From assembly GCA_913030945.1 (NCBI GenBank), contig CAJWEP010000002.1:1-57287 (forward strand): a DNA stretch of 57,287 nucleotides, read 5' to 3'. The stretch's first letter is position 1; each line of letters opens with the position of its first letter. The stretch comes from an uncultured Verrucomicrobiota bacterium (GTDB lineage: Bacteria > Verrucomicrobiota > Verrucomicrobiia > Limisphaerales > UBA1096). A program made the translations under genes and the position numbers. The notes under the pieces are model-generated. The model worked only from the letters and a program-made list of their open reading frames with translations, searched no databases and was not told the DNA's origin. Of the stretch, positions 963-36,217 are shown piece by piece.

Positions 963-3128
963 CTACCAGATGGATTTTAGTTCGTGGGCTTCCAGGTTGA
1001 CAAGTTTCGCCTTGCCTCCCTGGGCTACGACCGAGACTTCTGTTGTGTCCTGTTTTGCGGGTCCCGATCCACTGATGAAAACCCGGCCATCGTTGCCGAC
1101 AATCTCGGTCAGCGAACGGTCTGCCAGAACCTGTATGCTGATCTTGCCATCCGCCGGTTTGAGCGGCGAGCCGTTCAGCTTTTGACCATTCACGTCATAC
1201 TTGATGGTTCGACCGGGCAAGTTGAGGACAATGGCCTTGGCGACACCCAGCTCTACGGTCAGGCGCACGTCGAGGAGATCGCTACCCACGGCCATGGTGA
1301 CCGGTTTGTCGGCGGCGAGTTCCTGGGCCCGAGCCTGGTTGCTCTTGGCACGCAGGTTCTCGATTTCCTTGATCGGTTTGGCGTACATGCGGACACCATC
1401 CTCCGTCTGGCGCAAGGTCAGGCGGTGGGGAAAGCTGAAGTGCTGGTTGTACGGCCCCGGGGCACCGATGCGCAACCAGCCCATCTGGATTTTGCGCCCG
1501 TCGGGCGGATTATCGAAGGTCTGGGAGGCATAATAAGGGCCCCAGTGCACCTGGTGCTTCTCCTTGTGCTCGGGGGTGAAGACCTTGCCGTCGAACTGTC
1601 CAACCTGGTATTTGGCATCGGCCGCGTAAACCACCCAGCGGGTGTTCTTCTTGTCGCCGTCGACCGGTAGTTCGAAGAGCTCGGTGCACTCGTAGTAGCC
1701 CGGCAGGTGGCTTTGCTCGGTCCATTCCTTCATGTCGGTCGAGGTGTAGAAGGCGGCGTTTCTGCCGTGTTCCTTGTTCTGGTCAAACACGGTCATGACC
1801 CAGTGGCCACCCAGTTTCCTGGCTGCATCATCGAGGGGCCTATCCTTTTTATCGTATTCGTACCAGGTTACCTTCGGGTCACGCCCGCCATGTTTCACCA
1901 CGGGGTTCTTCTCGTAGTAGGTGAAGGTGTCTCCGTTATCGTTGCTGTAGGCGATGCATTCGCCGCATCCGGTGTCGGTGAAGAAGGCGACTAAAGTGTT
2001 CTTGCCCCAACCGGCTGTGTTTTCCTTGTCCACCGTGGCGCTGCCGGAGAAGCAGTCGCGCACTGCCATGGTTTTCGGAAAGAGCTTGTTCGGTTGCTGC
2101 TCCCAGTACAGGAGATCCTTGCTCGTGGCGTGCCCCCAGGTCATGTTGCCCCATGGGAGCGCCACTGGGTTGTGCTGAAAGAAGAAGTGCCAGGTGCCTT
2201 CATGGTAGACCATCCCGTTGGGATCGTTGTTCCAACCCACTTTCTGGGTGAAGTGGAACTGGGGACGATAAGGCTCTTTGTAGAAGTTCTCCTCGCCCGG
2301 TATGACGTCGGACTGCTTGACTAAGGCAAAACCGTCTTCTGTGGCCTTGCTCGCCACCACACGAGCTTTCTTGCCCTTGTAGCTCTCTATGGTGAAGTAG
2401 GCGTACCAGTTGGTCGATTCGGCAGAAGGTGCGATGCTAAGGCCATAGCGACGCACTTCCTCGTCGTCCACAAAAAGCTGTATCTGCCCACCTTTGCCCC
2501 CACTGTCCTGAATAGGTATGACGAGGTACTTGTTCTCGACCGTGAATTCCTTCTCATTGTTGCCGAAATTGGGAATTTTGGGCTTGGTATCGGTTTGGAC
2601 GATATGATCCACATTGACGTGCCCCCAGCCACCGGTCTCGGCATCCACGATCTGCAGCGTGACCGTTTTGCCTTTGAATTTCTTTACGTCCCAAACGCCG
2701 GGCTGCAGCGTCTCGCTACCGCCGGGCTGGTTGTTGGTACCGGTGACACTACGGACTGTTTTCCCGTCCAGCAAGAGGTTCATGCAGGTCTTGCCTCTAT
2801 GCCCCCCTCCCCCGACGAGAAAGCTCAGGTAGTTACGTTCTACTTTAATCGATGGAGAAGTCAGGGTGCCAACCGTGCGATCGTGGTTGAAAAAGCTGTT
2901 CACGAGACGTTTGCCCTTGTAGCCGCTGACGTGCATCTGCCCTGGCAAGGTCCCCTTCGCCGGCCCGGGACCAAAGGCTTCGCCCTCCACCTTCCAGTCG
3001 CCGTAGGTTTCAGCCTCGAAATCGGCGATCAAAAGATCGGGGCGTGGTTTATCTTGCTGGGCCCAAACAAGGGAACCGGTTGTTACCAAGGCCGTAAATA
3101 CCGTTTTGATATGGGTTTTCAGATTCAC
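963..3128 (-). CDS. glycoside hydrolase family 32 (levanase/fructan beta-fructosidase-like), secreted
   Basis: 721-aa ORF with an N-terminal signal peptide. It carries the GH32 catalytic blocks WNNDPNG (W at residue 299), FSGSA and ECTELF, preceded by a ~290-aa N-terminal extension. Confidence 0.85.
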   Translation of the reverse strand: MNLKTHIKTVFTALVTTGSLVWAQQDKPRPDLLIADFEAETYGDWKVEGEAFGPGPAKGTLPGQMHVSGYKGKRLVNSFFNHDRTVGTLTSPSIKVERNYLSFLVGGGGHRGKTCMNLLLDGKTVRSVTGTNNQPGGSETLQPGVWDVKKFKGKTVTLQIVDAETGGWGHVNVDHIVQTDTKPKIPNFGNNEKEFTVENKYLVIPIQDSGGKGGQIQLFVDDEEVRRYGLSIAPSAESTNWYAYFTIESYKGKKARVVASKATEDGFALVKQSDVIPGEENFYKEPYRPQFHFTQKVGWNNDPNGMVYHEGTWHFFFQHNPVALPWGNMTWGHATSKDLLYWEQQPNKLFPKTMAVRDCFSGSATVDKENTAGWGKNTLVAFFTDTGCGECIAYSNDNGDTFTYYEKNPVVKHGGRDPKVTWYEYDKKDRPLDDAARKLGGHWVMTVFDQNKEHGRNAAFYTSTDMKEWTEQSHLPGYYECTELFELPVDGDKKNTRWVVYAADAKYQVGQFDGKVFTPEHKEKHQVHWGPYYASQTFDNPPDGRKIQMGWLRIGAPGPYNQHFSFPHRLTLRQTEDGVRMYAKPIKEIENLRAKSNQARAQELAADKPVTMAVGSDLLDVRLTVELGVAKAIVLNLPGRTIKYDVNGQKLNGSPLKPADGKISIQVLADRSLTEIVGNDGRVFISGSGPAKQDTTEVSVVAQGGKAKLVNLEAHELKSIW

Positions 3129-3459
3129 AGTAAGTTTCCTTTCTTCGGAGCTAAAGTGCTAATGACGGCTGCTGCGTTGACATATTCACAACAGATTACC
3201 AGCTTGTTTAACAACGGTCAACTGCTGCGACTCCCCACACCCCGCCAATAGCACGGCTGCGATTGTTGTGATTATCTGTTGTTTCATTTTCGTTTAGCTT
3301 TCAATTCTTTACCTGTCTTGGTGCTGTGTATATGGAGGAGGTTGACGGTTCACCGTGCCGTACGCAAATCCAGAAGACTCTTGTTCCGAACTTAGCTTAA
3401 AGCACCTTGATCTGGATTTGATTGCAGCCGTATTGCTCATCTGATTCCAACGTGCCGGT

Positions 3460-5184
3460 TTATACTTTTTTCACCAGGAAATCCCCGATGGCAAGGTATT
3501 GGAGGTCGCTGCCAAAAAACATCTCCAGGGCGTCTTCCGGAGAGCAGACCATCGGCTCGCCGCGACGGTTAAGTGAGGTGTTAAGCAGCATCGGAATACC
3601 AGTCCGAGCCTCGAATTTTTTCAGCAGCTCATGGTAGCGCGGATTCGAGTTCTGAGTGACAATTTGCGGCCGTACGGTGCCGTCCTCGTGGACAATCTCC
3701 GGCACGCGCGGCTTCCAATGGTCAGCCACGTCAAAAGTGAAAGTCATGTAGGGGGAGGGATGTTTGGTTTGTAGGAAGTCGCAGGCCACGGTGTCGAGGA
3801 TGGATGGACAAAAGGGACGCCAACGCTCTCGGTATTTGATCTGGGTGTTGATGGTATCGGCTGTGCCGTGAATGCCAGGATGGCCGAGGATGCTGCGGTT
3901 ACCCAGGGCGCGCGGGCCGAACTCCATCCTACCTTGGAACCATGAGACTACCTCACCCCGGGAGAGCAATTCGCTGACGGTGTCGGTGATGGAATCGCAT
4001 CGCTCGTACCGGACGTCCCGCGTGTCAAGCATTCGGCGAATCTCATCATTGGAATACTCGGGGCCAAGATAGGCGTGCTGCATTGGCAGAACTTTGTCAC
4101 CCAGTTGGTGAGCCGCATGGGTGGCCGCCCCAAGCGCGGAACCAGCATCGCTGGCTGCCGGCTGCACGAACAATTCACCCTCTATCGGGTCGAGGTATTC
4201 AACAATTCGCTGGTTGGCCTTGACGTTGAGCGCCACGCCACCGGCATAGGCGAGCCGACGGGTACTGCTGATGAGGTCCCCGAGATAGTGCCGAATCAGC
4301 GCAAGGAGCACCTCCTCGAGTTGACGCTGGACCGCGGCAGCAATGTGGATATAGGGCTCATCTTTGTCATCGCCGCTGCGTGGCAACCCCCAGTGGTCGA
4401 TCAATTTTTGTGAAAAATAGGTTCCTTGGCCGGTGTCGCGTTTGTGGCGGCGGATGCCGATGCAGTTTGCCAGTTGGGTGTTGACTCGGAAGCCGCGCTC
4501 ATCCCAGTCCATGAGCTGCGACACATCAGAGCGCTGCGGATCGCCATAGGGGGCCATGCCCATGACCTTGAATTCTCCGTCCAGCATCTCAAAGCCCAGA
4601 AACTCAGTGACAGCTCCGTAGAGTCCCCCCAGTGAGTCGGGCATGTAAAACTCCTTGATGCAATGAATTTCCCCGCTCCGGCCGTGTCCAAACCAAGTGG
4701 TGGCGTATTCGCCATTGCCGTCCACACTCAGGATGGCGGAGTCGCGATATCCAGAAAGATGATAGGCACTGGAGGCGTGTGCCAGATGATGCTCCACGGG
4801 AAAAAAACGGATTTTGTCCGGGTTGATGCCGAGTCGTTTTAGCGCAGCGAAGAGTTGATGGCGAAACCGACGAAACCGGCGGTTGCCGTTGAAAATGGCT
4901 GTCAGCGCGCGGTCGGGCGCATACCAGTGGCGTCGAGCGAAATGCCAGCGGCCGGGATGAAAAAAAGCAAGCGGAGCAAAGGGGATGGCAACAGCATCGA
5001 CATCGGACGGCTTGAGCCCGGCGTGCTCAAGGCAGAACCTCGCCGCCTCGCTAGCCTGCCTCCCCTTGGCGTGTTTGTCCCGGATCAACCTCTCCTCCTC
5101 AACTGCGGCGACAACTCGCCCATCGACGACCAACGCCGCCGCCGGGTCGTGACCGACGCATCCTCCCATTCCCAAGACGTTCAT
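3460..5184 (-). CDS. carbamoyltransferase (NodU/CmcH family)
   Basis: 574-aa ORF. The N-terminus MNVLGMGG..HDPAAALVVDGRVVAAVEEERLIRDKH and the overall length are typical of NodU/CmcH O-carbamoyltransferases. Its start lies 1 nt from the stop of the upstream ankyrin gene. Confidence 0.85.
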   Translation of the reverse strand: MNVLGMGGCVGHDPAAALVVDGRVVAAVEEERLIRDKHAKGRQASEAARFCLEHAGLKPSDVDAVAIPFAPLAFFHPGRWHFARRHWYAPDRALTAIFNGNRRFRRFRHQLFAALKRLGINPDKIRFFPVEHHLAHASSAYHLSGYRDSAILSVDGNGEYATTWFGHGRSGEIHCIKEFYMPDSLGGLYGAVTEFLGFEMLDGEFKVMGMAPYGDPQRSDVSQLMDWDERGFRVNTQLANCIGIRRHKRDTGQGTYFSQKLIDHWGLPRSGDDKDEPYIHIAAAVQRQLEEVLLALIRHYLGDLISSTRRLAYAGGVALNVKANQRIVEYLDPIEGELFVQPAASDAGSALGAATHAAHQLGDKVLPMQHAYLGPEYSNDEIRRMLDTRDVRYERCDSITDTVSELLSRGEVVSWFQGRMEFGPRALGNRSILGHPGIHGTADTINTQIKYRERWRPFCPSILDTVACDFLQTKHPSPYMTFTFDVADHWKPRVPEIVHEDGTVRPQIVTQNSNPRYHELLKKFEARTGIPMLLNTSLNRRGEPMVCSPEDALEMFFGSDLQYLAIGDFLVKKV

Positions 5185-5185
5185 T

Positions 5186-5461
5186 TCAAAACCAATACCA
5201 TTGATTGGCTAATGGCTCGTATGAGCTTGAATGCGAACTCCTTGCTGTGAGCAGTTCGACGATTTCCTTGTGAACAAGACGAGTCGCATAATTCAAAGGA
5301 GTCAATCCACTTACATCCTCATCACCCACATCCATGCCTTTACTCAATTCCGCTTGGACACCAGCAAGATCTCCATTCTCGGCAGCATCGTGAATCGGGT
5401 CTGCGAAGGCAGTTGTGACCAGTAGTAAGGTAATCGTCAGCGTCGTGATTAACTGTTTCAT
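5186..5461 (-). CDS. small secreted ankyrin-repeat protein
   Basis: 91-aa ORF. It has a signal peptide (MKQLITTLTITLLLVTTAFA) and an ANK-like block (GLTPLNYATRLVHKEIVELL). Confidence 0.65.
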   Translation of the reverse strand: MKQLITTLTITLLLVTTAFADPIHDAAENGDLAGVQAELSKGMDVGDEDVSGLTPLNYATRLVHKEIVELLTARSSHSSSYEPLANQWYWF

Positions 5462-5607
5462 CGGTCAAACAGAAATCCAACCATTCATAATCGGTTTAAA
5501 GCACCGCCAAAACTGTCTGAAGCAAAACAATTACTGCAATGCACACTCAACCAATAGCACAACTGGGGTACCATCCAAACACCTCACTAAAACCGGCACG
5601 TCGAGCT

Positions 5608-6537
5608 TCAGTGGGTCATCGCGTAGATGAGAATGTTGATACCCATCGGGTACGACTTGGGCTCGGAGAAATGTTTAAAATACCAAGGGGTCGCCCCCTC
5701 CTCCTCCCAGCCGTCGCCGACATCGGTGTTGTGGCAGGCAACGCCCATCATGCGGTTCTTCTTGTCAAAGTAGGCGTAATAATGAGGCAAGGGCGGCAGG
5801 GTCTCGTACTGTTTTCTCTCCCAAGTAACTCCGCTTTCCAAGGCCTGTTGCGCCGTGGCGAACCGATGACTCTCGTACCAGTCCTCACTCGGAACCTGCG
5901 GCTTTTCATTTAACGGAAATACATGGTTAAAAAGCGGATGATCAACGGCCAAATCGACCGGTTCAATATTGGGTAATACCCGTTTCATTTCACGGTAAAA
6001 CGTCTCCCACTCCGATTCGCTCCAAAAATCATCTGCCATGAAAAAGCCGCCGTTGAGCAGGTAATCGCGAAAGCCCTTGACCTCATCCTCGCCAAGGGAC
6101 ATGGAACGCGGATCGGTGATGTAGACAAACGGATGCTCATTCAGCAAATCCCCTGTGAACTCGACAAGCGTGCCATCCGGGTCGGCCTTGATGGCGGTGA
6201 GCTGCTCGATGCGAAAGGAAAAATTCAGGTCTGCATCGGGATAATCCACCCGCCACCCGCCGCCGAACCCCCGGCCATAGCCGGAGTATTGCACCCGGGC
6301 AAAGGTGAACTTGTCATGCGGCAACTCAGCATCGTTTTCCCAATCCGGCACGCCGGCACGGCCACCCCGGCCGCCGCCGAATCCGCCGCGACCACTACGG
6401 CCTCCGGGATCACGGGTCCACTGCGCCACAGCTGCTGCTCCCAGCAGAGCCACAGCCAGCATCGACAAAACGATTTTTTGTGCCCAGTTTTTCAAGAGTC
6501 CCGCTTGGTTAAGCGCCTGGCCTGACCAAGTTGCCAT
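5608..6537 (-). CDS. DUF4159-like exported/membrane-anchored protein
   Basis: 309-aa ORF with an N-terminal TM helix and a Gly/Arg-rich linker. The blocks RVDYPDADLNFSFRIEQLT, HPFVYITD, LLNGGFFMADDF and the C-terminal GINILIYAMTH resemble DUF4159, as recalled from memory. Confidence 0.6.
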   Translation of the reverse strand: MATWSGQALNQAGLLKNWAQKIVLSMLAVALLGAAAVAQWTRDPGGRSGRGGFGGGRGGRAGVPDWENDAELPHDKFTFARVQYSGYGRGFGGGWRVDYPDADLNFSFRIEQLTAIKADPDGTLVEFTGDLLNEHPFVYITDPRSMSLGEDEVKGFRDYLLNGGFFMADDFWSESEWETFYREMKRVLPNIEPVDLAVDHPLFNHVFPLNEKPQVPSEDWYESHRFATAQQALESGVTWERKQYETLPPLPHYYAYFDKKNRMMGVACHNTDVGDGWEEEGATPWYFKHFSEPKSYPMGINILIYAMTH

Positions 6538-6607
6538 ACGCCGCAGGTCACGAATTAGTTACGGTTTGCCCTCAAAAAGCAAGCCAAGCGAATGATCCCC
6601 AACATGT

Positions 6608-7513
6608 TCAGGTGGCCGGAATACAGCGCTGAAACAGCATAGCCAAACCAAAAAGCAGGAAGAACACCATGCCGGTTTGCATATCCTGATTTGCTGCCAA
6701 CAAAAAATCGAGAAGCACAATGCCCGCCAGCAAACCGGATACCGTCCGGCCGTATTGTGGCATGATTGACTTGAACGTGAACAGCAGGCTGCGAACAATC
6801 CAAAGAGCATAAAGGCATGCGGCGAAGATTAACCCGCTCCAAGCCACCTCCACCCCGCCGGGTAAACATGCTGATGCAATCGCAAGCAGCAAAGGCAAGG
6901 CAAGCAACCAGGCAGGCCAGGAATTGACCCGGCCACCCGTAGCCTCTCGACGGGCAATGTTGCTGAGGCCCACGACATAGCCGCACAACGCAACCGCCCC
7001 GAGGATGACTGGCAAGGTAACGCAGCCAACAGCGACGGCACAAGCCAGCAGGTACAGAAGAAAACGGCACAAGCCCATGATGAGCGGCGACCAGATGATT
7101 CGCTTGTGAAGCCAGTCGTACCAAAGAATGCCTCCAGCCAAGCCCAGCGCGAAGAGTGCCGCAATGGAGTTGATCCAAACGACACAGCCAAGACCAAGCG
7201 CCATCTGGACGCTCCCCAAAATCCAGACTGCCCTAGCGCTGATGGCGCCGCTGGGGATGGGGCGCTCAGTTCGATGTTCCCGATCAAACCGTTCATCGAA
7301 AGCGTCATTGAGAAACATTCCGGCGAGATAGAGCAACGTCGCCCCACCGGCAAGCCAGACGAAACGTACCTGATCCGCGGACTCGACCAGCGCGCCGTCG
7401 GCCAACAACCAAGCGGCGAGGCAGTTCGACCACACCGTGGGAAGGTTGGAAACCCGGCCCAGCATCAGTATGGCCTTCAAACAACCGTAGGATGAATCGC
7501 GCTTCGGGCGCAT
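6608..7513 (-). CDS. eboC: UbiA-family prenyltransferase (EboC-like by context)
   Basis: 301-aa polytopic membrane ORF with the Asp-rich motif NDAFDERFD. It starts 1 nt after the stop of the EboE-like gene. Confidence 0.7.
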   Translation of the reverse strand: MRPKRDSSYGCLKAILMLGRVSNLPTVWSNCLAAWLLADGALVESADQVRFVWLAGGATLLYLAGMFLNDAFDERFDREHRTERPIPSGAISARAVWILGSVQMALGLGCVVWINSIAALFALGLAGGILWYDWLHKRIIWSPLIMGLCRFLLYLLACAVAVGCVTLPVILGAVALCGYVVGLSNIARREATGGRVNSWPAWLLALPLLLAIASACLPGGVEVAWSGLIFAACLYALWIVRSLLFTFKSIMPQYGRTVSGLLAGIVLLDFLLAANQDMQTGMVFFLLFGLAMLFQRCIPAT

Positions 7514-7514
7514 G

Positions 7515-8693
7515 TCAGTCAGTTGGGGTAATCCCCTGCTCTGCCAGCTTGGCCAGGGTCCAGTCGTACTCGCCGACGAGTTGATCGACGACGTCGCGCT
7601 GTTTCATCTCGTCGGGCAACACTTCCCACGTGTACGTCTCCATTTCGATGTGCGAACAGAGCGCCGGGTTGGCGCCGAGCACACCGATGGCTTGCTGCAG
7701 CTGGTCTGCCGTGGTGTCGAACAACACCGTCGGCGGGCAGTGCAGCGGGACGTGAAAATGAATCCGCCACTCGGTGTCGCCAGCTGTCTCGCTGCGCGCG
7801 GCGGCGGCCAACGCGTCCGGCAAATCGCGATACCGCGTGAGCGCACCGTCCGCGCTTCTTGTCACGACTTGATGAAAATAAATGTCCTCCGCGAAGCCGG
7901 CCAAGCCGTCAAGCGTCTCGGCGCTTGGCTGCACCTTGAGCGCGGAACTGAAATGCAGCTTGCTGATGCGAATGCCCTCGGCAGCCAACGAGTCAAGTGC
8001 GGCGGCAGCCTCCTCGAACTCGACGGCCAGATGGCAGGTGTCGTAGTTAATCCCCAAGCGCTTGGCCAACCGATCGTCACCGGGCCGGTCGTCGCGCAGT
8101 TGCCGGTAAAACCGGATCATCTCCTCAGTCGTTTCCAGATAACACAACGGCTCTGGCTCGAGGCCGAGGTGCAGATCCTTGCCGGTCTTTTCGCTGAGCA
8201 CGTCGATGTGCTCGACCACTTCCCAAACGTTGCGCCGCATGGCCTCGACCTGCTCGTCACCGGTGATGAATTCCTTGAACGAGCATGGCACGGTGCTGAC
8301 GCTGCCACCCGCATCCGCCGGGGCAAGCTCGGCTAGGATATCGAACAGCCGCCTGGTGTATTCCACGCGCTCCGGAGTCGTCCAGTCCGGCTGATAAACC
8401 TGCTCCTTGATGCGTTTCCCGTGAAAATCGCCATGCGGGAAGCCGTTGATGGTGAAGATGTAACAGTTGTTTTCGTCGAGCCAGGCGCGAAAGCGTTCAA
8501 GCTCGCCCGCTTGGCCAAGCTGGCGGGAGGCAGTGTCGCCCAACCGCAGGCCGATCGCATAAGGCCTACCCGCACCAACGCGGTCCCGCACGCGGAGCGT
8601 ATGCTCGTTTAGCGACCGGAACGTCTCCGGCCAGTCGCCACCGCGATGGACGTTTGTGCAGTAGGCCAGATGGATGCCGTGGCTGAGCCTCAT
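7515..8693 (-). CDS. eboE: EboE-like xylose-isomerase-fold TIM-barrel protein
   Basis: 392-aa ORF. The N-terminus HLAYCTNVHRGGDWPETF and the length match my recollection of the EboE family. It sits between TatD-like and UbiA genes. Confidence 0.7.
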   Translation of the reverse strand: MRLSHGIHLAYCTNVHRGGDWPETFRSLNEHTLRVRDRVGAGRPYAIGLRLGDTASRQLGQAGELERFRAWLDENNCYIFTINGFPHGDFHGKRIKEQVYQPDWTTPERVEYTRRLFDILAELAPADAGGSVSTVPCSFKEFITGDEQVEAMRRNVWEVVEHIDVLSEKTGKDLHLGLEPEPLCYLETTEEMIRFYRQLRDDRPGDDRLAKRLGINYDTCHLAVEFEEAAAALDSLAAEGIRISKLHFSSALKVQPSAETLDGLAGFAEDIYFHQVVTRSADGALTRYRDLPDALAAAARSETAGDTEWRIHFHVPLHCPPTVLFDTTADQLQQAIGVLGANPALCSHIEMETYTWEVLPDEMKQRDVVDQLVGEYDWTLAKLAEQGITPTD

Positions 8694-8709
8694 GTGCGCT
8701 TGGGCAAGC

Positions 8710-9522
8710 TCAAAGCCCCACGGGCCTGATGAAGCGCGGGCTCTGGCTCATGAACTCGATCGGGTTTTGATAAACCACCTTGTCGATATACTGGGCATCA
8801 TTGCCACGACGTTTCATTTCCTGCGCAGCCTGCGGCACGGCCAACGGCACACTGATGCCCCAGTCGCACGCGCTGTTCATCCAGATGCGCTCGTTTCCGT
8901 ACACCTCTAGAATGTCAATCGCGCGGTTGGCAGTACACTTGGTCTCGGGGTACAGGGTCATGCCGGCCCAGAACCCGTCATCGAGCACCATTCCCACCGT
9001 ATGCTCCTCGACATGGTCGATGATGCAACGCTCCGGCCGAATGCGGCTGTCGCTTTTGAGCACGTCCAGAATCAGCCGTGTGCCCTTGCGCTTGTCCTCG
9101 AGGTGCGGCGTGTGGACGAGGATCAACTGATCGTTGCTCCCCGCCAGGTCGACGTGCTTCTCGAGCACGGTCATCTCGTTGCGGCTGTTTTTGTTCAGGC
9201 CGATCTCCCCGATGCCAAGCACGTTCGGGCTGTCCATGAATTCCGGGATGATCGCCAGCACTTCGTCAGCGAGCGCGAGGTCCTCCGACTCCTTCGGGTT
9301 GATGCAAAGCCAGGTGTAGTGCGGCAGGCCAAATATCGAGGCTCTTCGCGGCTCGTGCTGCGTGAGTTGGCAAAAGTAGTCGTAAAAGCCCTGCGCCGAA
9401 CTGCGGTCGAACCCCGCCCAGAACGCTGGCTCGCACACCGCCTGACAGCCGGCCATGGCCATGGCCCGGTAATCGTCCGTCGTGCGGCTGACCATGTGGC
9501 CGTGTGGCTCAATGTAGCGCAT
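8710..9522 (-). CDS. eboB: TatD-family metal-dependent hydrolase (EboB-like)
   Basis: 270-aa ORF. The N-terminus MRYIEPHGHMVSRTTDDYRAMAMAG..EPAFW is typical of the EboB subgroup of TatD hydrolases. Confidence 0.7.
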   Translation of the reverse strand: MRYIEPHGHMVSRTTDDYRAMAMAGCQAVCEPAFWAGFDRSSAQGFYDYFCQLTQHEPRRASIFGLPHYTWLCINPKESEDLALADEVLAIIPEFMDSPNVLGIGEIGLNKNSRNEMTVLEKHVDLAGSNDQLILVHTPHLEDKRKGTRLILDVLKSDSRIRPERCIIDHVEEHTVGMVLDDGFWAGMTLYPETKCTANRAIDILEVYGNERIWMNSACDWGISVPLAVPQAAQEMKRRGNDAQYIDKVVYQNPIEFMSQSPRFIRPVGL

Positions 9523-9534
9523 CGTCCTGTTCGG

Positions 9535-9810
9535 TCAGTCTTCGTCCGCGCCGGGCCAGGCACCGCAGGCGGCCTTGGTGGTCGCTGCAGGGATAGGTTC
9601 GTCCGTAGGATCGCTGAAGGCCAAGAGTACCTTCTCGGCTCGGTCCGGTTGCCCACTCTCCAGCGCCTTCAGCGCCTCGCGGTAGGCGTTGTATCGAAAA
9701 TCCGTCTCGCCGCCAGCGCGGTCCACGCGATCCATAAACGCCGCGATGTCGATCAGCCTCGCCCGGGCGTCCAAAAAATAAAGGTCGAGGATGTTTTTTT
9801 GGTCAGCCAT
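9535..9810 (-). CDS. hypothetical small protein leading the ebo-like genes
   Basis: 91-aa ORF, 12 nt upstream of the TatD-like gene on the same strand. No motif recognised. Confidence 0.45.
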   Translation of the reverse strand: MADQKNILDLYFLDARARLIDIAAFMDRVDRAGGETDFRYNAYREALKALESGQPDRAEKVLLAFSDPTDEPIPAATTKAACGAWPGADED

Positions 9811-9860
9811 TTTTCAGTGTAAAGGAGGGAAATAAACACCCGAATCGACTCGTTGGCAAT

Positions 9861-10907
9861 CTATTGCTGATCGGCAGTTGAGCTGGGCTTCATCACCCGC
9901 CAAATGCCAGCGGCGATACTGCCCAGGATGCAGTGTGTCACGGCGCTGACAGCACATGGCACGGCGACGAGCGGCAGAGCCGCGAAATGCTTCGTGGCCA
10001 AGGCGGTGCCTAGGCCGCTGTTCTGCATACCCACCTCGATCGATACCGTGCGGCTCGATTGCTCGTCGAACCTCATCAACCTAGCCAATCCGTACCCCAG
10101 CCCAAAGCCGCCGACGTGCAGCATCAGCACCGAGGCGACCAGCGTTTGCCAGTTCCCGAGGATGGAGTCACGGTTTTGAGAAAGGATGTAACCGACGATC
10201 AAGATGATAACGAGCACTGATACGAACGGAGAGACAGCGGCTATCCGCTTGGATACCTTACCGAAAAAGTGGTTAATCGCGATCCCGACAGCGACCGGTA
10301 GGATGACGATGACCAATATACTCTGCAACAGGCCAAGAGCATCCACCGGCACCTGTTCGCTCACGTAAAACTTGGTGAGCAGAGGGGTCAGCACAACGGC
10401 CATCGTCGTAGAAATGGCGGTCATGCTGACGGATAGTGCTACATTTGCCCGGGCGAGAAACGCGACGACGTTCGAAGCGGTCCCGCCGGGGCAACTGGCA
10501 ACCAGCACCAAGCCGACGGCCATGTCCAGGGGCAATTCCATCAAGTGACCGATGCCCCACCCGAGTATTGGCATCACGGTGAATTGAAGTGCCACGCCGC
10601 CAACCAAGGCGAACGGGATCACGAATACCCGCCGGAAATCGTCGAGGGTCAGCGTTAGCCCCATCCCCAGCATGATGATGCCAAGGCCGATGCGGATCAT
10701 CGTACCGTTGGGAATATCGCCCTCACCCCACTCGGGATGATCCTCGGTTCCAAACTTGCCGTCAGGCCCTGAGTGCCAATCAAATGCGCTTGGCCAGACA
10801 AGCGCTACCACGGCGACAAGCACGGACCAGAGTGGGAATAGGTTGGTCAAGCACCGAAAAAAGGTTTGCACGGCGCAGATAGAGACCGCTTGGCCTGATA
10901 GCGGCAA
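9861..10907 (-). CDS. bile acid:sodium symporter (BASS/SBF) family transporter
   Basis: 348-aa polytopic ORF. The EVGMQNSGLGTALA block is characteristic of BASS-family transporters. Confidence 0.8.
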   Translation of the reverse strand: MPLSGQAVSICAVQTFFRCLTNLFPLWSVLVAVVALVWPSAFDWHSGPDGKFGTEDHPEWGEGDIPNGTMIRIGLGIIMLGMGLTLTLDDFRRVFVIPFALVGGVALQFTVMPILGWGIGHLMELPLDMAVGLVLVASCPGGTASNVVAFLARANVALSVSMTAISTTMAVVLTPLLTKFYVSEQVPVDALGLLQSILVIVILPVAVGIAINHFFGKVSKRIAAVSPFVSVLVIILIVGYILSQNRDSILGNWQTLVASVLMLHVGGFGLGYGLARLMRFDEQSSRTVSIEVGMQNSGLGTALATKHFAALPLVAVPCAVSAVTHCILGSIAAGIWRVMKPSSTADQQ

Positions 10908-10972
10908 TCAAAATTTAGTAAAAATCCCGGCTTCGGCTTGAGTTGCCGGAGGAGCGGGATTAGATTGCCGAC

Positions 10973-11554
10973 ATGAAGCGTTTGTTGTTTGGCTTGTTTT
11001 TGGGTGCAACCTGCCTTTTGGAACCCACCGTCGCCCTGGCGCAGGGGGCTTCACTGGAGACACGCGCGCTACGGGAGGATTATCGGCGATTACAGAGCCA
11101 ACTGGCGGATCTTCTCGAGGCGCACAATGCCCTTAAGAGCGAACTCTCCAAGCTCAGCACCGAGGTGCGTCTGCTCCGTGCCCAAGCGGCGACAAAGGAT
11201 CCCGCCACCGTCACCAGGGCCGACCTGGAGGGGTTGGCCAAGTCGATCCGCGAAATCGACAGCAAGCGCGTTCAGGATAAGAATCTGATTCTCAAGGAGA
11301 TGCAGGCGTTGCTTCGATCCGCCCCAACAGGGGCTAAGCCGCCCGCCGCGGCGCTCCATCCGGAAAAAGGCTTCGACCACTCCGTCGAAGCCGGCCAGAC
11401 CATCTCGGCCATCATCGCCGCCTACAACAACAAATTGAAAAGCCAGGGTGTAAAAAAACGAATCACACTTAAGTCGGTACTCGAGGCCAACCCGAACCTG
11501 AATCCGCGGACGATACGGATCGGCCAATCGCTTTTCATTCCGGACCCGAGATAA
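10973..11554 (+). CDS. secreted coiled-coil protein with C-terminal LysM domain
   Basis: 193-aa ORF with a signal peptide, a heptad-like Leu/Glu-rich middle and a LysM-like C-terminus (HSVEAGQTISAIIAAY...IRIGQSLFIP). Confidence 0.7.
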   Translation: MKRLLFGLFLGATCLLEPTVALAQGASLETRALREDYRRLQSQLADLLEAHNALKSELSKLSTEVRLLRAQAATKDPATVTRADLEGLAKSIREIDSKRVQDKNLILKEMQALLRSAPTGAKPPAAALHPEKGFDHSVEAGQTISAIIAAYNNKLKSQGVKKRITLKSVLEANPNLNPRTIRIGQSLFIPDPR

Positions 11555-11571
11555 CATCGCGCCCGAGCCTG

Positions 11572-11937
11572 ATGGATTTCTTGACAGAGAATTGGAGTAC
11601 AATCGTCTGGGCGGTTCCCGGGACATGGGTGGTTATTATTCTGGCGGTTTTCTGGGCGCTGCCCAGGATTGACTTTCGCGTCGGTTCCAACGCCGTGGTG
11701 ATCGAGTGGATGGGCTACGCCCTGCGCCGAATCCCGCTGTCGGACATCAACCGGGTCTCGAAGCGACTCAAGGGGAAGCCAGAGGTTTGGAGGAACACCT
11801 TGAGGGGGAACCACCGGATGCTGGTGCTTTACCGAAAAAGCGGCAAGCGGCCGGTGGTGATCACGCCTCACAACCGGTACGTGTTCCGAAACCAACTCGA
11901 GGCGAATCTCCAACGGCTGGCTTCCCCGGCCGCCTAG
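11572..11937 (+). CDS. hypothetical small membrane protein
   Basis: 121-aa ORF, 18 nt after the LysM gene, with one N-terminal TM helix. No family recognised. Confidence 0.45.
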   Translation: MDFLTENWSTIVWAVPGTWVVIILAVFWALPRIDFRVGSNAVVIEWMGYALRRIPLSDINRVSKRLKGKPEVWRNTLRGNHRMLVLYRKSGKRPVVITPHNRYVFRNQLEANLQRLASPAA

Positions 11938-12812
11938 CCGTAGTCCGGTGTGTACGATTTGCGCCGCGACCGGAGCCAGGTCTTCAACCCGATGCCCAGC
12001 TTGTCCAAGTGATTGATTTTCAACCTCCTCCCGTTCGACTGAAACACATTGTACTGAACAGCTCGAAGCTTCCCCAGCAAGCGCCAGTAGATGCCCCCCA
12101 TGGCTTCCGAGGCCACGAGCCGCTGCCTTTGCTCCTCCGGAAATGATTCGCGGGCCAGGCGGTAATGCGCCCAAGCGCGTTCGGCGATTTCCTGGGTGGC
12201 GTTCGCGTATCCAGCAGAGAAGCGACCGTTCAAAATGTCTTCCTCGGCGACCTCGTGTTTTTCCAGCATCGATTGTGGAAGATAAATCCTGCCCCGTTTG
12301 GCATCCTCGGCGACGTCGCGCAGAATGTTCGTCAACTGCAGCGCTTGGCCAAGATTTTCCGCGTAGCGTTCCGCCTCATCGCCGTCACATTTAAAAATTC
12401 GGATGCTCAGCAGGCCCACCACCGAGGCGACGCGGTGGCAGTAAAGTTTCAGTTCGTCAAAGTCCCTGTAACGGTTTTTCTCCAAGTCGGACTCCATCCC
12501 GACGAGCAACTCGTCAAACAAATAAAAAGGCAGAGCGAATTGGCGGATGAACGGGCGCAACTCGCGGCAAACCTGGAATTGGGGTTCCCCCCACTCGCAG
12601 GCTCTGCGGATGTCGTCCCTCCACTGCTGCAGGCTTGCAGCGCGCTTGACCGACGGCACGGAATCATTGTCGGCAGCATCGTCGACTTCCCGGCAGAAGG
12701 CATAGAGCGCGACCATCGCATGGCGCTTGGCCTTGGGCAGCAAGAAAAAAGCGGCTGCCAAATTGGAGCCGCTTTTTGCCGTAACCAACTGACTTTGTGA
12801 TGGTTGGATCAC
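11934..12812 (-). CDS. squalene/phytoene synthase family protein (HpnD/HpnC/CrtB-like)
   Basis: 292-aa ORF with the Asp-rich motifs FCREVDDAADN and NILRDVAEDAKRGRIYLP. Confidence 0.8.
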   Translation of the reverse strand: MIQPSQSQLVTAKSGSNLAAAFFLLPKAKRHAMVALYAFCREVDDAADNDSVPSVKRAASLQQWRDDIRRACEWGEPQFQVCRELRPFIRQFALPFYLFDELLVGMESDLEKNRYRDFDELKLYCHRVASVVGLLSIRIFKCDGDEAERYAENLGQALQLTNILRDVAEDAKRGRIYLPQSMLEKHEVAEEDILNGRFSAGYANATQEIAERAWAHYRLARESFPEEQRQRLVASEAMGGIYWRLLGKLRAVQYNVFQSNGRRLKINHLDKLGIGLKTWLRSRRKSYTPDYG

Positions 12813-13195
12813 TAATCCGGTTTTGTTTCGTCGTCCTCCGGTGTAGCACTGTTCTTAGGAGGCAGACCGCCGGTTTCAGAGAGGGTCGGATTTCGTTTTC
12901 GGTGATCCCGGCGGCGGCGCTTGTGGCGGCGGCGCTTTTTGCGCCGGGTGCCCTCCTCGCCCGGGGCCATCGGCTTGGAAGTTGTCAGACGGGCAGCGCG
13001 TCCGCGCTTGGATTGCCTTCCGCCACCAACACTGTGCATCGCTAGGATCACCATGGCGATGATGAGGGCAAGGCCAAGCGCGATGGTGACGATCAGCAAC
13101 GGCATCTTGATCGAGTCCAGAAAACCGTCGGTATTCGGGTTGCCGGGATTCATTAGGGCCAACAATTGCCCTTGCGTTGTCATTAACAGGTTCAT
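12812..13195 (-). CDS. hypothetical single-pass membrane protein with extremely Arg/Lys-rich tail
   Basis: 127-aa ORF. Its start overlaps the regulator stop by 4 nt and its stop shares 1 nt with the next start. It has one TM helix followed by RRKKRRRHKRRRRDHRKR. Confidence 0.5.
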   Translation of the reverse strand: MNLLMTTQGQLLALMNPGNPNTDGFLDSIKMPLLIVTIALGLALIIAMVILAMHSVGGGRQSKRGRAARLTTSKPMAPGEEGTRRKKRRRHKRRRRDHRKRNPTLSETGGLPPKNSATPEDDETKPD

Positions 13196-14607
13196 TCGGC
13201 GACTGGGTTCCCCTCATCATCCGTGTCAGTCTCTGGGGTAAGCTGCAGGCGTGTCATCCGGTAGCGCAAAGCGTGCCGACTGATGCCCAGTTTCTGCGAG
13301 GTTCGGCTAAGGTTCTTGTCATTGCGTGCCAACTCGGTGCGAATTATGTTACTCTCGAATGAAGCAAGCGCCTCCTCAAGTGAAAGCCCCTCATAGGACG
13401 AAGCGGAGTCATCCTCCTTTCGCAGGCGCGTCTCGAACCTAAAGTCAGGCAGGTTCATGGGGTGGATCATATCGGAGGTTGAGAGGATCACCGCACGCTC
13501 CATCGTGTTTCGCAACTCACGGACATTGCCCGGCCAATGGTGGCTTTCGAGCATGTGACGCACCTCACTAGAGAGCGGCTGAAACTGCTTGTTCATCTTG
13601 CGGCCGAACCCCGATAGAAAATGCTCCGCCAACAAGATGACATCCCCGTCACGATCCCGCAGTGGCGAGACTCTCAACTGAACCACGTTCAATCGATGGT
13701 AGAGGTCCTCCCTAAAATCGCCGTTCTCAATGGCTTCAATGATGTCCCGGTTGGTCGCCGCAATGATCCGAACATCCACCCGGAGTTCCTCCGTTCCGCC
13801 GACGCGGACAAATGTGCCATCCTCGAGAAACCGCAGCAGCTTGGCCTGAAGGGATCGGGACATCTCGCCGATTTCATCCAGGAACAGAGTGCCGCCGTTG
13901 GCCTCCTCCACCTGGCCGCTCTTCTGTTTCACCGCGCCGGTGAAGGATCCTTTTTCGTGCCCGAACAATTCGCTCTCGAGCAGCGTCTCCGGGATGGCCG
14001 CGCAGTTCAATCGAACGTACGGCTCCTCGCGACGCTGGCTGGAGTGGTGAACGGAACCGGCGATCAGCTCCTTGCCGGTGCCGCTTTCGCCAAGGATCAG
14101 AATCGTTGCTTCGGTCGGGCCAACCGTCCGGATCATCTCACGCAGATCCTTCAGGCTTTGGCAGTTCCCGATGATGTCGTCCAGCTGGTAGCCATACGGC
14201 AGGCGTGCCTTGAGCTTTTCGTTCTGGCGGATGAGTTCGTGCCGCTCGGCGCAGCGGTTTACGGAGTGCAGCAGTTCCTCCGGCTCGAACGGCTTGGATA
14301 GGTAATCGATGGCCCCGGTCTGGATCGCCTCCACCGCCAGTTTCGGCGTGGCGTAGGCGGTGATCATCAGCACAGGCAGGTCCGGCCAGCGCTCATGCGT
14401 TTCGCGGAGAAAATCATAGCCGCTCATCCCCTCGAGCCGCGCGTCAGTGATAACCATGAAATAATCAGACTTCTCAACCACCTTCAATCCATCCTCCGCT
14501 GACTCGACGGTGTCCACCTGGTATCCCCGCGACTCAAGAACGGTCTTGAGCGAATCGCGCATATTGCGCTCATCGTCAACGACCAGTAGGCTTTGGTTTC
14601 CGTTCAT
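13192..14607 (-). CDS. sigma-54-dependent response regulator (NtrC family)
   Basis: 471-aa ORF with a receiver domain, an AAA+ domain (Walker A GESGTGKE and GSFTGA loop) and a C-terminal Fis-type HTH. Confidence 0.9.
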   Translation of the reverse strand: MNGNQSLLVVDDERNMRDSLKTVLESRGYQVDTVESAEDGLKVVEKSDYFMVITDARLEGMSGYDFLRETHERWPDLPVLMITAYATPKLAVEAIQTGAIDYLSKPFEPEELLHSVNRCAERHELIRQNEKLKARLPYGYQLDDIIGNCQSLKDLREMIRTVGPTEATILILGESGTGKELIAGSVHHSSQRREEPYVRLNCAAIPETLLESELFGHEKGSFTGAVKQKSGQVEEANGGTLFLDEIGEMSRSLQAKLLRFLEDGTFVRVGGTEELRVDVRIIAATNRDIIEAIENGDFREDLYHRLNVVQLRVSPLRDRDGDVILLAEHFLSGFGRKMNKQFQPLSSEVRHMLESHHWPGNVRELRNTMERAVILSTSDMIHPMNLPDFRFETRLRKEDDSASSYEGLSLEEALASFESNIIRTELARNDKNLSRTSQKLGISRHALRYRMTRLQLTPETDTDDEGNPVAE

Positions 14608-15983
14608 TTCGACTGGAGCCGAATGGCTGTCCTCCCTGGGAAGAATAGATTGAACCGTGTGTATTTTCCAAGTTCCGATTCAATTTTAACAGTACCGCCG
14701 TACAATTCGGTGTTGTGGCGGACGATGGCCAGCCCCAGCCCGGTGCCCTTTTCCTTGGTGGAGTGGTACGGCTCGAAGACCGATTCGAGGTTCTCCGTCG
14801 GTATGCCTGGGCCGTTGTCCTCGATGACCACCCGGAAGGTGTAGTCGCCCTCATAGCTGGTTTTTATCCGGATTTCGCCGTTGTTGCCCAGCACTTCCCG
14901 CGCATTTTGAATGACATTGACGAACACTTCGCTGATGTGCTCGGGTTGGGCTAGCAGCGGCGGCAGGGCGATCCCGTAATCGCGCCGGATGCGGATGCCA
15001 AACTTGGTGCCCTTCGGGAACACCTGCATAATGGCTGCGTCGAGCGTCTCGTTTACGTCGAGCTTGGCCAAGCGCCCCTCGACCAATTGGGCATAGCCCA
15101 TCAGCTTGGTGATGATCTGGTCCGCCCGGTTCACCTCCTCGCGAATCAGGCCCACCTGGCGCTTGGCCGTTTCGTTTTCATTCGTCGCTTGGCCAAGCGC
15201 GAATGCGGCATTGTTGATGATGCCCAGCGGGTTCTTCACCTGGTGCGCGATCTCCGCCGCGAGCCGCCCGGATGCCTGAAGCTGGCTCTGGCGCCGGTCG
15301 TACTCGTCCTCCTCGGCCTCCATGCGACGCTGCTTGTCGATCAGCACCTGCAGCCCGTAACCGCAGGCCGTCATCAACATCAGCAACAACGCCCGCAGCA
15401 TGACCGGCTCGCCCGTGATGTTCTCGAGTTCCTCCTCCGAACGCGCAACCACGATGTCAAACGCACCGGCACAAAGATAGATCACGCTGACGGATAGGTT
15501 CGCCACGATCTGCGTCGTGGCGATGGGCATGCTGATCGCGTTGCGAATCTGCAACCCCAGGAACATCCAAAACAGGAAGCTCTCAAAGCCGCCAGTCAGT
15601 TCCGTCATCATCGCCAGCAGCAACGCGTCGAACAGGCAGATGGAAAATACCACCTCCCGGAGCATCCGCGTTGAAAACTCCTCCATCCGGATGAGCATCA
15701 CGCCAATGATTACGTTGACGATGAGGCAGAAAACGAAGAACCACTGTATGGTGCGCAACAGCGTCCAGCGCACCCGGTCGGCGTCTATCATCTCGGGCCA
15801 CTCGATAAAGTAGAGATAAAAAATGAGAACGAGGAAGTAAACCACCTTGACTGGCAGGATGGTGTTGCGCTCCATGAACCGAATACGTGCACGTTGCGAG
15901 CCGTCGTCGGGCGCAACGGACTTGAACAACTGGGACAGCCGCCACCAGTCGATCCAAGTCTTGCTGCCCCTTGGGGAAGCCAT
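14604..15983 (-). CDS. sensor histidine kinase with multi-TM N-terminal sensor
   Basis: 459-aa ORF with about 5-6 TM helices, an H-box (EIAHQVKNPL) and an HATPase G-box (GTGLGLAIV). It overlaps the regulator start by 4 nt. Confidence 0.85.
   Translation of the reverse strand: MASPRGSKTWIDWWRLSQLFKSVAPDDGSQRARIRFMERNTILPVKVVYFLVLIFYLYFIEWPEMIDADRVRWTLLRTIQWFFVFCLIVNVIIGVMLIRMEEFSTRMLREVVFSICLFDALLLAMMTELTGGFESFLFWMFLGLQIRNAISMPIATTQIVANLSVSVIYLCAGAFDIVVARSEEELENITGEPVMLRALLLMLMTACGYGLQVLIDKQRRMEAEEDEYDRRQSQLQASGRLAAEIAHQVKNPLGIINNAAFALGQATNENETAKRQVGLIREEVNRADQIITKLMGYAQLVEGRLAKLDVNETLDAAIMQVFPKGTKFGIRIRRDYGIALPPLLAQPEHISEVFVNVIQNAREVLGNNGEIRIKTSYEGDYTFRVVIEDNGPGIPTENLESVFEPYHSTKEKGTGLGLAIVRHNTELYGGTVKIESELGKYTRFNLFFPGRTAIRLQSK
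15186..15199. repeat. perfect 14-bp palindrome CGCTTGGCCAAGCG
   Basis: Exact match read from the sequence. It lies inside the histidine kinase gene and encodes ALGQA. Confidence 0.95.
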
Positions 15984-22192: not shown

Positions 22193-23005
22193 CTATGCAG
22201 AAGCTTCCTGCATGTAGCGCAGGCTCTCGCGAGCGATTGTCTTGGGGCCTTCCTCAAAGTCGAACACCTCCACCGACACGAACCCGTCGTAGCCGACTTC
22301 CTTCAGCGCAGCAAAGATCGGCTTGAAATCGACATCGCCAAAACCGGGGCCCTTGAGATTAGCGTCGTTGGCGTGGAAGTAGGCGAAGTTCGGGTGCGAG
22401 TCGCGGATGATGTCTGGGATCGGCTTGGGATCGGAACACATTGCTTTCACGTCGAGGATGATCTTGAAGGCCTCACTGTCAAACTGCTGAATAAACTCGA
22501 TGCCCTTCTCGGCTGTGTTGACAAAATCCGTCTCCGACGGGGCCAGCGGCTCGAAACAAATTGTCACCCCCTTGTCCTCGGCCAGCTTGATCGACGGCGC
22601 AAACGTCTCCCGTGCCAGTTCCCACGCCTCCTCAAAACTGATGCCCGGCAATAGATTTCGCTGCTTCGGCGAACCGACGACAATCGCCTCGCCGCCAAGA
22701 TCGGCGCAAAACTCGACGAGTTCGCAAAAATAATTCGCTGTCTTGCGGCGAACTTCCGGGTCGGTGTGCGTCATGTACATGCCCTCGGTCTTGAGGAGCA
22801 CCCAATGCACCGCCGAAATTCCGATACCGCAGTCAGCGGCGACATCGCGTATTCGCCGCCTCTCCACAACCGGCACCTCCGTCACGTACTGCGCCAGTGT
22901 AAACGGCGCGATCTCAATCGCATCGTACCCCGTCTCGGCGACAAGCTTGATGGAATCATCAATCTCCCATCCCTCAAAAACCTCGTTGCAAATGGCAAAT
23001 TTCAT
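22193..23005 (-). CDS. sugar phosphate isomerase/epimerase (xylose-isomerase-like TIM barrel)
   Basis: The MKFAICNEVF..GYDAIEI N-terminus is typical of this family. The start was trimmed from the 23041 ORF start. Confidence 0.75.
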   Translation of the reverse strand: MKFAICNEVFEGWEIDDSIKLVAETGYDAIEIAPFTLAQYVTEVPVVERRRIRDVAADCGIGISAVHWVLLKTEGMYMTHTDPEVRRKTANYFCELVEFCADLGGEAIVVGSPKQRNLLPGISFEEAWELARETFAPSIKLAEDKGVTICFEPLAPSETDFVNTAEKGIEFIQQFDSEAFKIILDVKAMCSDPKPIPDIIRDSHPNFAYFHANDANLKGPGFGDVDFKPIFAALKEVGYDGFVSVEVFDFEEGPKTIARESLRYMQEASA

Positions 23006-23056
23006 TTTGTGGATTAGCGTGAAAAACGAGTAGTCAACCACAGTTGGGCTTGGTTT

Positions 23057-24020: not shown

Positions 24021-24095
24021 TCCAGAGTAGCTCAATGGTAGAGCGAGCGGCTGTTAACCGCTAGGTTGCTGGTTCGAGTCCAGCCTCTGGAGCCA
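24021..24095 (+). tRNA. tRNA-Asn (anticodon GTT), CCA encoded
   Basis: The cloverleaf was folded by hand. Acceptor stem is TCCAGAG/CTCTGGA, D stem GCTC/GAGC, anticodon stem AGCGG/CCGCT with loop CTGTTAA, and T stem GCTGG/CCAGC with loop TTCGAGT. Discriminator G and CCA follow. Confidence 0.9.
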
Positions 24096-30896: not shown

Positions 30897-31038
30897 AAAA
30901 CAGCGCTTACCCAAGGTAGCCGTCGGCCTCCGCTCGGAGAAGCAGAAACTCCCGTTCCCCTTGGCCAAGCGCCCAAAAATACTTGCAGTCCGGCCTGGCG
31001 ATGGGTTTACTGTTCCCCCGCTTTTGGCGCGCAAACTC

Positions 31039-36160: not shown

Positions 36161-36217
36161 AATGCGCGGTGAGAGTCAGGGGAAACGCGCCGTTTGACCA
36201 GCAAGATTTTGGGGGAG

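Follow-up and report, generated by a model that had tools for sequence, protein, structure and literature searches.

What kind of pathway is encoded by the row of minus-strand genes between positions 3460 and 10907 of a contig from an uncultured Verrucomicrobiota bacterium, and which of these genes belong to it? An earlier note on this stretch of DNA (57 kb, analysed here at its full length and called the window below) had described a non-canonical, ebo-like cluster in the order eboB-eboE-eboC, tied to genes for a DUF4159 protein, a secreted ankyrin protein and a carbamoyltransferase. We scored the open reading frames (ORFs) of the window with Pfam and NCBIfam models and surveyed related loci in other genomes (L-numbers below). 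The segment 6608-9810 on the minus strand emerges as the core of an eboG-type ebo system, eboG-eboB-eboE-eboC (G-B-E-C), which we judge, at a probability of roughly 0.8, to be a functional operon with a thallusin-like function, the latter being drawn from the literature. The ebo genes are widespread, and thallusin is a bacterial signal that controls seaweed development (bioRxiv 10.64898/2026.05.21.724671). For the four genes we observed their identity, their order, purifying selection and recurrence in related genomes. The host resembles Limisphaerales/Pedosphaeraceae within the Verrucomicrobiota, and an identical EboE protein was found on the metagenome contigs L001 and L002, which come from the same species.

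An intact four-gene core under purifying selection

All eight minus-strand ORFs of the region were reproduced with the coordinates, strands and gaps that the earlier note had given them (3460-5184, 5186-5461, 5608-6537, 6608-7513, 7515-8693, 8710-9522, 9535-9810 and 9861-10907), the gaps being, from the BASS-family transporter gene to the carbamoyltransferase gene, 50, 12, 16, 1, 70, 146 and 1 nt. Purifying selection acts on eboG, eboB, eboE and eboC, as well as on the DUF4159 and BASS genes (dN/dS 0.03-0.17, at dS values versus relatives of 0.4 to >2), and all four ebo ORFs are intact. As the gaps of 12, 16 and 1 nt inside the core, which are consistent with a single operon, come together with such low dN/dS ratios, we take G-B-E-C to be a working operon. 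A decaying, non-functional remnant of a once-complete ebo operon, to which the absence of eboD and eboF from the locus might point, is hardly credible in view of the four intact ORFs, of these dN/dS ratios and of EboB sequences that are 75-97% identical across related loci.

Scans of positions 3000-13500 for sigma-70 promoters and terminators gave signals at or below shuffle expectation, and hence no usable operon boundaries. A sigma-54 promoter upstream of the BASS gene or eboG, an idea that came from the neighbouring sigma-54 two-component system, was rejected: 79 matches were found against 73.5 expected, none of them suitably placed.

Assignment of EboE, EboB and EboC

The clearest assignment is that of EboE (7515-8693, minus strand, 392 amino acids), a xylose-isomerase-like TIM barrel that scored 447.5 bits against the NCBIfam model NF035939 (TIM_EboE; cutoff 250) over model positions 1-378 of 379, which bears out its earlier identification. 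Its homologues in Verrucomicrobiota/Verrucomicrobia metagenome-assembled genomes are 83-88% identical and already carry the NCBI name 'metabolite traffic protein EboE', and its identity to the EboE proteins from complete ebo operons is 38-42%. A sequence search of the PDB returned no match for EboE.

The 270-amino acid protein encoded directly upstream (8710-9522, minus strand) has a TatD-like metallo-hydrolase fold, although weakly so by its Pfam score (TatD_DNase, 27.4 bits against a cutoff of 27). The earlier reading of this gene as TatD/EboB-like agrees with its identities of 39-61% to EboB of four annotated ebo clusters. Over the full length, it is 57% and 61% identical to the eboG-type EboBs of Deinococcus and Gemmatirosa, respectively, versus 45% and 39% to the eboA-type EboBs of Streptomyces and Ketogulonicigenium. 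This pattern matches the published EboB tree, which splits into an eboA-associated and an eboG-associated clade (PMC5133447), and, judged from pairwise identities only, the protein groups with the eboG-associated EboBs. No other gene of the locus is as conserved as eboB (dN/dS 0.03-0.07). An EboB-specific NCBIfam model was matched by none of the Ebo proteins that we scanned, and in the PDB sequence search EboB matched only the uncharacterised archaeal protein 3guw.

For EboC (6608-7513, minus strand, 301 amino acids), a UbiA-superfamily membrane prenyltransferase, the best model was NF035940 at 120.7 bits, below the cutoff of 250, which taken by itself speaks against the assignment. Yet the EboCs of complete clusters score lower still against this model (Deinococcus 96.3 bits, Ketogulonicigenium 76.4 bits), so the sub-cutoff score is not informative. 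Over the full length, the protein shares 35% of its residues with the EboC of Deinococcus and 33% with that of Ketogulonicigenium, and it retains the invariant NDxxDxxxD, RPxPxG and YDxxHK motifs together with every residue that is invariant among the reference EboCs; its gene follows eboE directly, at a gap of 1 nt, as in Deinococcus. It also matches the SCO3242 model, sub-threshold, at 92 bits. We regard NF035940 as a narrow model and, by position, best match and motifs, assign the UbiA protein as an EboC orthologue, as the earlier note had suggested.

A small ORF upstream of eboB corresponds to EboG

The key to the layout is the 91-amino acid ORF at 9535-9810 (minus strand; orf91), which lies directly upstream of eboB with a 12-nt gap. 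It aligns end to end with a 108-amino acid 'hypothetical' protein whose gene in Deinococcus sp. AB2017081 is flanked by eboD and eboB (38% identity over 90 amino acids, E 1e-12), sharing invariant AAFxDR...G..DFR and SD...A.GA motifs. A tblastn search of 7.3 Gb of plasmid DNA (72,556 plasmids) returned three matches to orf91 only, in each case immediately upstream of eboB and on a replicon that has eboE as well, and in about 37 related loci a homologue likewise precedes the TatD gene eboB. Because of the Deinococcus homology, the restriction of the plasmid matches to ebo-bearing replicons and the constant place before eboB, we assign orf91 as EboG, the protein that replaces EboA in eboG-type operons. 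It matched no Pfam or NCBIfam model, and at E<=0.01 it gave no match to the EboA models NF035937 and NF035938, on which the reference Ketogulonicigenium EboA scores 132-150 bits; an identity as EboA was ruled out on these grounds.

With orf91 read as EboG, the locus reads G-B-E-C. An eboG-type variant was described in 2016, with EboG in place of EboA and gene orders DGBECF in Deinococcus and CDGBEF in Acidobacteriaceae KBS 96, and with further examples in Herpetosiphon and Truepera (PMC5133447, Table S2). In two annotated Deinococcus plasmids we found, in order, genes for a 3-dehydroquinate synthase (EboD), a hypothetical protein of ~110 amino acids, TatD, EboE, UbiA and an AlkP-family protein (EboF). 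What had appeared as a non-canonical B-E-C arrangement is thus the inner block of the published DGBECF operon and not a new layout.

The EboG family counts at least 7,994 database members, all named 'hypothetical' and none with a Pfam domain. The gene evolves under purifying selection (dN/dS 0.06-0.12), and the C-terminal stretch of the protein is almost invariant (FSDPTxEPIxxATTKAACGAWPG; alignments A2, A3). An AlphaFold model (pLDDT 68) has three N-terminal helices and an unstructured C-terminal tail (pLDDT <50), while a PDB sequence search gave no match for EboG. EboG is therefore predicted to be small and helical and to end in a tail that is strongly conserved and probably unstructured. 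A tail that is conserved yet disordered suggests a docking segment for another protein, for which EboB would be the obvious candidate. As EboG always precedes eboB, we propose that it may act as an accessory subunit or partner of EboB.

Within the literature searched, the term eboG for this gene appears in PMC5133447 only. The thallusin preprint nowhere mentions eboG, nor does its text list an eboG-type organism among its thallusin tests (bioRxiv 10.64898/2026.05.21.724671). Its gene survey used EboA-F and Ino1-3 as queries, so that an accessory gene of the G type would have gone unregistered. The recognition of EboG in Verrucomicrobiota is new here.

A range of arrangements in related loci

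Using a profile of Verrucomicrobiota EboE proteins, we collected 80 loci from species-representative genomes, most of them labelled Verrucomicrobiota, Limisphaerales or Pedosphaera and a few with other, possibly mis-binned, labels; the more distant EboE relatives carry Limisphaerales or Pedosphaera labels. All four genes occur together in 15 loci, and many more hold GBE or EC. When only the 40 loci with adequate flank on both sides are counted, 16 hold E alone, 12 GBE, 7 GBEC, 4 EC and 1 BEC. Clustering of all neighbouring ORFs of the 80 loci revealed no further widely conserved partner beyond G, B, E and C, and otherwise gave only clade-level synteny as well as common sulfatases and ABC transporters; conservation beyond one clade is limited to G-B-E-C. 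The true unit is hence G-B-E-C, possibly with the BASS gene. As the arrangements range this widely, with eboF within 10 kb of eboE in none of the 80 loci and eboD in a single one (L066), G-B-E-C without D and F is one ordinary state of the gene set in the phylum.

Where are eboD and eboF?

The earlier note had placed an ebo-related cluster in a window that holds neither eboD nor eboF, and this was confirmed. Among the ~45 ORFs of the window, no Pfam match to DHQ_synthase was found for eboD, and tblastn with two reference EboDs gave no match in the 57 kb; for eboF, tblastn with three reference EboFs was likewise negative across the window, and the ORFs include no EboF-type phosphodiesterase, with two sulfatases giving weak Phosphodiest matches only. 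When we searched the protein database with Deinococcus EboF, no Verrucomicrobiota names appeared among the best 120 matches, an uninformative outcome, as EboF is more than 60% identical across phyla.

Two readings of these absences have to be weighed. In the first, eboD and eboF are truly lost, and the four genes, perhaps with the BASS gene, make or traffic a different prenylated compound, one possibility being a lipid-carrier 'metabolite traffic' role as proposed for Nostoc. The eboF and eboD counts across the 80 loci would fit such a four-gene pathway, as would the BASS gene, tightly linked and co-directional throughout the clade; furthermore, eboG-type clusters are without a reported product, and the export model of PMC6282210 still stands as an option. 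In the second, the two genes lie elsewhere in the genome. The thallusin preprint reports ebo core genes scattered in Planctomycetota and present in Verrucomicrobiota, with the complete core set of four, eboF among them, in several orders of Verrucomicrobiota (bioRxiv 10.64898/2026.05.21.724671), and a supplementary sequence list holds four Verrucomicrobia, apparently in the EboF set (PMC5133447). Moreover, eboF is part of every complete eboG-type cluster that we examined (two in Deinococcus, one in Gemmatirosa), and the continuous range between GBEC and a lone E suggests that the genes were dispersed and not that a new minimal unit arose.

Scattered ebo genes are functional in the sister phylum Planctomycetota: eboB, eboC, eboE as well as eboF are each essential for thallusin in Stieleria maiorica (bioRxiv 10.64898/2026.05.21.724671), and since each core gene is still essential there, dispersal does not mean lost function. 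On balance, we consider it unlikely that eboD and eboF have been lost and, with the same reserve, that, in this clade and perhaps in many Verrucomicrobiota, G-B-E-C and the clade's BASS gene without EboD and EboF yield or export a prenylated metabolite distinct from thallusin, with EboG as a dedicated EboB-binding subunit that defines a second ebo branch of different chemistry. The absence of D and F from the locus is typical of the phylum, and the locus as a whole falls into the eboG-type ebo family, which is already known, in the dispersed form typical of the phylum, its EboE homologues being already auto-annotated.

An inositol route as in Actinomycetota was also considered and, as far as the window goes, rejected: the window contains no gene for an inositol-3-phosphate synthase (Ino1), only a generic TIM barrel at 22193-23041. 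The latter (minus strand) is a xylose-isomerase-like protein scoring 134.6 bits and has 23.5% identity with the sugar-phosphate isomerase from the Streptomyces ino-type ebo cluster; its gene lies among unrelated genes, beside one for a PNP/UDP phosphorylase, and is probably unconnected with the ebo genes.

Proposed function of the eboG-type core

The earlier note had called the product of ebo genes unknown, a statement that the recent tying of eboB, eboC, eboE and eboF to thallusin has made outdated (bioRxiv 10.64898/2026.05.21.724671). According to the same work, the head group of thallusin derives from L-aspartate and a cyclitol (supplied through EboD, or through the inositol route in Actinomycetota), and EboC homologues taken from three phyla attach a farnesyl group to 6,7,8-trihydroxyquinaldic acid. 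Transferred to the present locus, the TatD-fold hydrolase EboB and the TIM barrel EboE would help to turn a cyclitol and L-aspartate into a hydroxylated aromatic head group, jointly with the phosphodiesterase EboF and with a supply of the cyclitol by EboD or the inositol route, both of which would be encoded elsewhere in the genome. The membrane protein EboC would then prenylate this head group, farnesyl diphosphate being the substrate used by the tested homologues, and the resulting meroterpenoid would resemble thallusin or saccharoquinoline. By analogy with the characterised systems, the prenylation of a cyclitol/aspartate-derived head group is the likely function.

Several points weigh against a functional operon of this kind. 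The presence of eboF and eboD elsewhere in this genome is an assumption, neither gene was detected in the window, and the two are nearly or entirely missing near eboE across the surveyed loci, as set out above; the low NF035940 score of EboC counts on the same side. The product of eboG-type clusters may differ from thallusin, and an earlier study had given the ebo genes a role in metabolite export and not in biosynthesis (PMC6282210). As for EboG, the partnership with EboB is suggested by adjacency and by a structure model of medium confidence (pLDDT 68). The finding draws attention to a gap, namely the product of eboG-type clusters and the role of EboG, in a variant that has been ignored since 2016 and whose core is under strong selection in abundant uncultured aquatic Verrucomicrobiota from freshwater and marine metagenomes. 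Its value is corrective and modest: besides the recognition of EboG, what is new is that the conserved unit is delimited and that the carbamoylation/ankyrin hypothesis, discussed below, is removed.

Comparison with known ebo systems

Compared to the published eboG-type operon, the present locus has the same genes G, B, E and C in the same order, with EboG for EboA, an EboB of the same clade (57-61% identity) and, relative to Deinococcus, similar overlaps or short gaps. By contrast, eboD and eboF do not flank the core, a BASS gene lies directly upstream in this clade, and the host belongs to the Verrucomicrobiota, which are not listed for the variant in PMC5133447. The canonical eboABCDEF operons of Bacteroidota, cyanobacteria and eustigmatophyte plastids share orthologous EboB, EboC and EboE and the same predicted chemistry, in which EboC would prenylate a cyclitol/aspartate-derived aromatic head group. 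They differ from the present locus, which is without EboA (no match to NF035937 or NF035938), has another gene order and has D and F off the locus, and whose EboC is far below the NF035940 cutoff; furthermore, the canonical type is now linked to thallusin, whereas the eboG-type is without a reported product.

With the ebo genes of Planctomycetota (Stieleria maiorica; Rubinisphaera, with the arrangement d//C//F//E//a//B), the locus shares the PVC superphylum and the dispersal of genes. However, Planctomycetes carry EboA according to the 2016 table (PMC5133447), while here EboG is found and four genes are still clustered. The literature is in conflict on this matter: the preprint states that Planctomycetota are without eboA, and Table S2 of PMC5133447 gives accessions of EboA proteins from Blastopirellula marina and from Rubinisphaera brasiliensis.

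The Actinomycetota-type cluster (Ino1, the SCO3242 prenyltransferase, EboA, EboB, EboE, EboF) resembles the present locus in that eboD is not at the locus, and differs from it in that our window lacks an inositol-3-phosphate synthase gene, has EboG for EboA and has no adjacent eboF. A separate observation concerns plasmid 2 of Gemmatirosa kalamazoonensis (L086; NZ_CP007130.1, 67763-88026), in which an unannotated cluster has eboE on one strand, the opposite strand carrying eboG, eboB, eboF, eboC and genes for an inositol-3-phosphate synthase and a sugar-phosphate isomerase. It is without eboD and is a hybrid of the eboG-type and the 'ino' route, which the preprint describes for Actinomycetota only.

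Flanking genes

Which of the neighbouring genes, then, belong to the system? The earlier note had joined the ebo-like enzymes with a carbamoyltransferase and with exported DUF4159 and secreted ankyrin proteins into one tight cluster that could make a prenylated, possibly carbamoylated, envelope metabolite. Co-direction and short gaps hold for this one species, and the family calls for the DUF4159 protein, the carbamoyltransferase and the BASS transporter stand; only G-B-E-C, however, is conserved beyond one clade.

The BASS/SBF transporter gene (9861-10907, minus strand) lies 50 nt upstream of eboG and co-directional with it. The protein scored 143 bits against Pfam SBF and 249.6 bits against TIGR00841, below the cutoff of 326. 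Every clade member with sufficient flank (L003, L005, L007-L010, L088-L094) has the gene upstream of eboG, as does none of the surveyed loci outside the clade, and it is thus a clade-specific neighbour. It is possibly co-transcribed with the ebo genes in this clade, where the transporter might, speculatively, move a carboxylated precursor or product.

Only clade members, defined by an EboE identity of at least 65%, share a syntenic block of genes for a histidine kinase, a sigma-54 regulator, orf127, a squalene/phytoene synthase, BASS, G, B, E, C and DUF4159, with orf121 and a LysM gene on the opposite strand between the squalene/phytoene synthase and BASS genes. This shared block is general synteny among relatives and not a specific linkage. 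In the window, its part just upstream of BASS-ebo (11934-15983, minus strand) encodes the squalene/phytoene synthase (SQS_PSY, 255 bits), orf127, which is a small membrane protein with an Arg/Lys-rich tail, and the sigma-54-dependent response regulator with its histidine kinase, all syntenic with BASS-ebo throughout the clade. The squalene synthase and EboC would share farnesyl diphosphate as a substrate.

On the other side of the core, the DUF4159 gene (5608-6537, minus strand) encodes a protein of 309 amino acids (PF13709, 135 bits) with a signal-like hydrophobic N-terminus, as judged by eye from the translation. Gene callers place its start at Met26 (284 amino acids), which is the more likely start and widens the gap to eboC from 70 to ~145 nt. 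In the PDB sequence search it matched only the uncharacterised 4i66. The gene lies downstream of eboC in one clade only, and in L088, whose EboE is 91% identical, two opposite-strand genes part it from eboC; opposite-strand genes also intervene in L091 and L092, so that DUF4159 is no obligate member of the operon, and its presumed coupling to the ebo genes is largely not conserved. In L088, the closest other species, the two genes inserted at this junction (11110-15221) are an FG-GAP/UnbV_ASPIC gene and a 770-amino acid multihaem-cytochrome-like gene, while in L091 and L092 the single intervening gene (11110-11787) is a 225-amino acid remnant of the FG-GAP gene; the eboC-DUF4159 junction records recent gain and decay.

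The ankyrin-like ORF (5186-5461, minus strand, 91 amino acids), with a signal-like N-terminus and ~1.5 ankyrin repeats, is a doubtful gene outside the system. Its Ank_2 score of 27.1 bits falls just below the cutoff of 27.3, its GC content is 46% versus 59% for the window, and it occurs in same-species contigs only, where gene callers leave it uncalled in both L001 and L002 and where a 1-nt deletion frameshifts it in the near-identical L002. It did not hold up as a 'secreted ankyrin protein'.

The NodU/CmcH carbamoyltransferase gene (3460-5184, minus strand, 574 amino acids) is, by contrast, genuine in its domains (Carbam_trans_N 154.6 bits, Carbam_trans_C 228.2 bits), but it is a species-specific neighbour that follows DUF4159 in L001 and L002 only. 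It is not found downstream of the cluster in L004, L005, L088, L091, L092 or L093, relatives with 83-91% EboE identity, in which other genes take its place: FtsY, PHP and NusB on the opposite strand in L004 and L005, Mrp-antiporter genes in L088, L091 and L092, and other opposite-strand genes in L093. Of the 44 loci whose flank extends over 7 kb or more, a single one has a distant carbamoyltransferase homologue (32%). The adjacency of carbamoyltransferase and ankyrin-like ORF is therefore confined to same-species contigs, neither being at this position in any other species examined.

Together with the AT-rich 146-nt spacer (45% GC) that separates DUF4159 from the ankyrin-like ORF and the genes that intervene between DUF4159 and eboC in relatives, these observations make a seven- or eight-gene unit very improbable, and the proposed carbamoylated envelope metabolite found no support in the analysis. 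The DUF4159 gene is a neighbour and not a component, and so are the ankyrin-like ORF and the carbamoyltransferase gene, the last two being there by chance, and the unit remains G-B-E-C. The region 5186-5607 as a whole is AT-rich (45-46% GC). As the segment from the GH32 gene to the ankyrin-like ORF stands where relatives have FtsY or Mrp genes, it marks a rearrangement or insertion point.

Other features of the window

Further along the window, an ORF of 1178 amino acids (24061-27597, minus strand) had no Pfam match at E<=0.001. It is followed at 27899-31064 (minus strand) by three overlapping, co-directional genes, whose products are a kinase of the PfkB family, a protein that weakly matches an ArgZ-like Rossmann model and a hydrolase of the HAD type; the three have the look of a small pathway for sugar or nucleoside phosphates. 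As the longest ORF for the HAD hydrolase overlaps that for HtpG (30799-32970, plus strand), the listed start of either the one or the other is probably too early. The lowest GC content of the window (52%) is reached at 36001-38000, within which lies a gene (36640-37488, minus strand) whose pilin-like product carries a methylation motif at its N-terminus.

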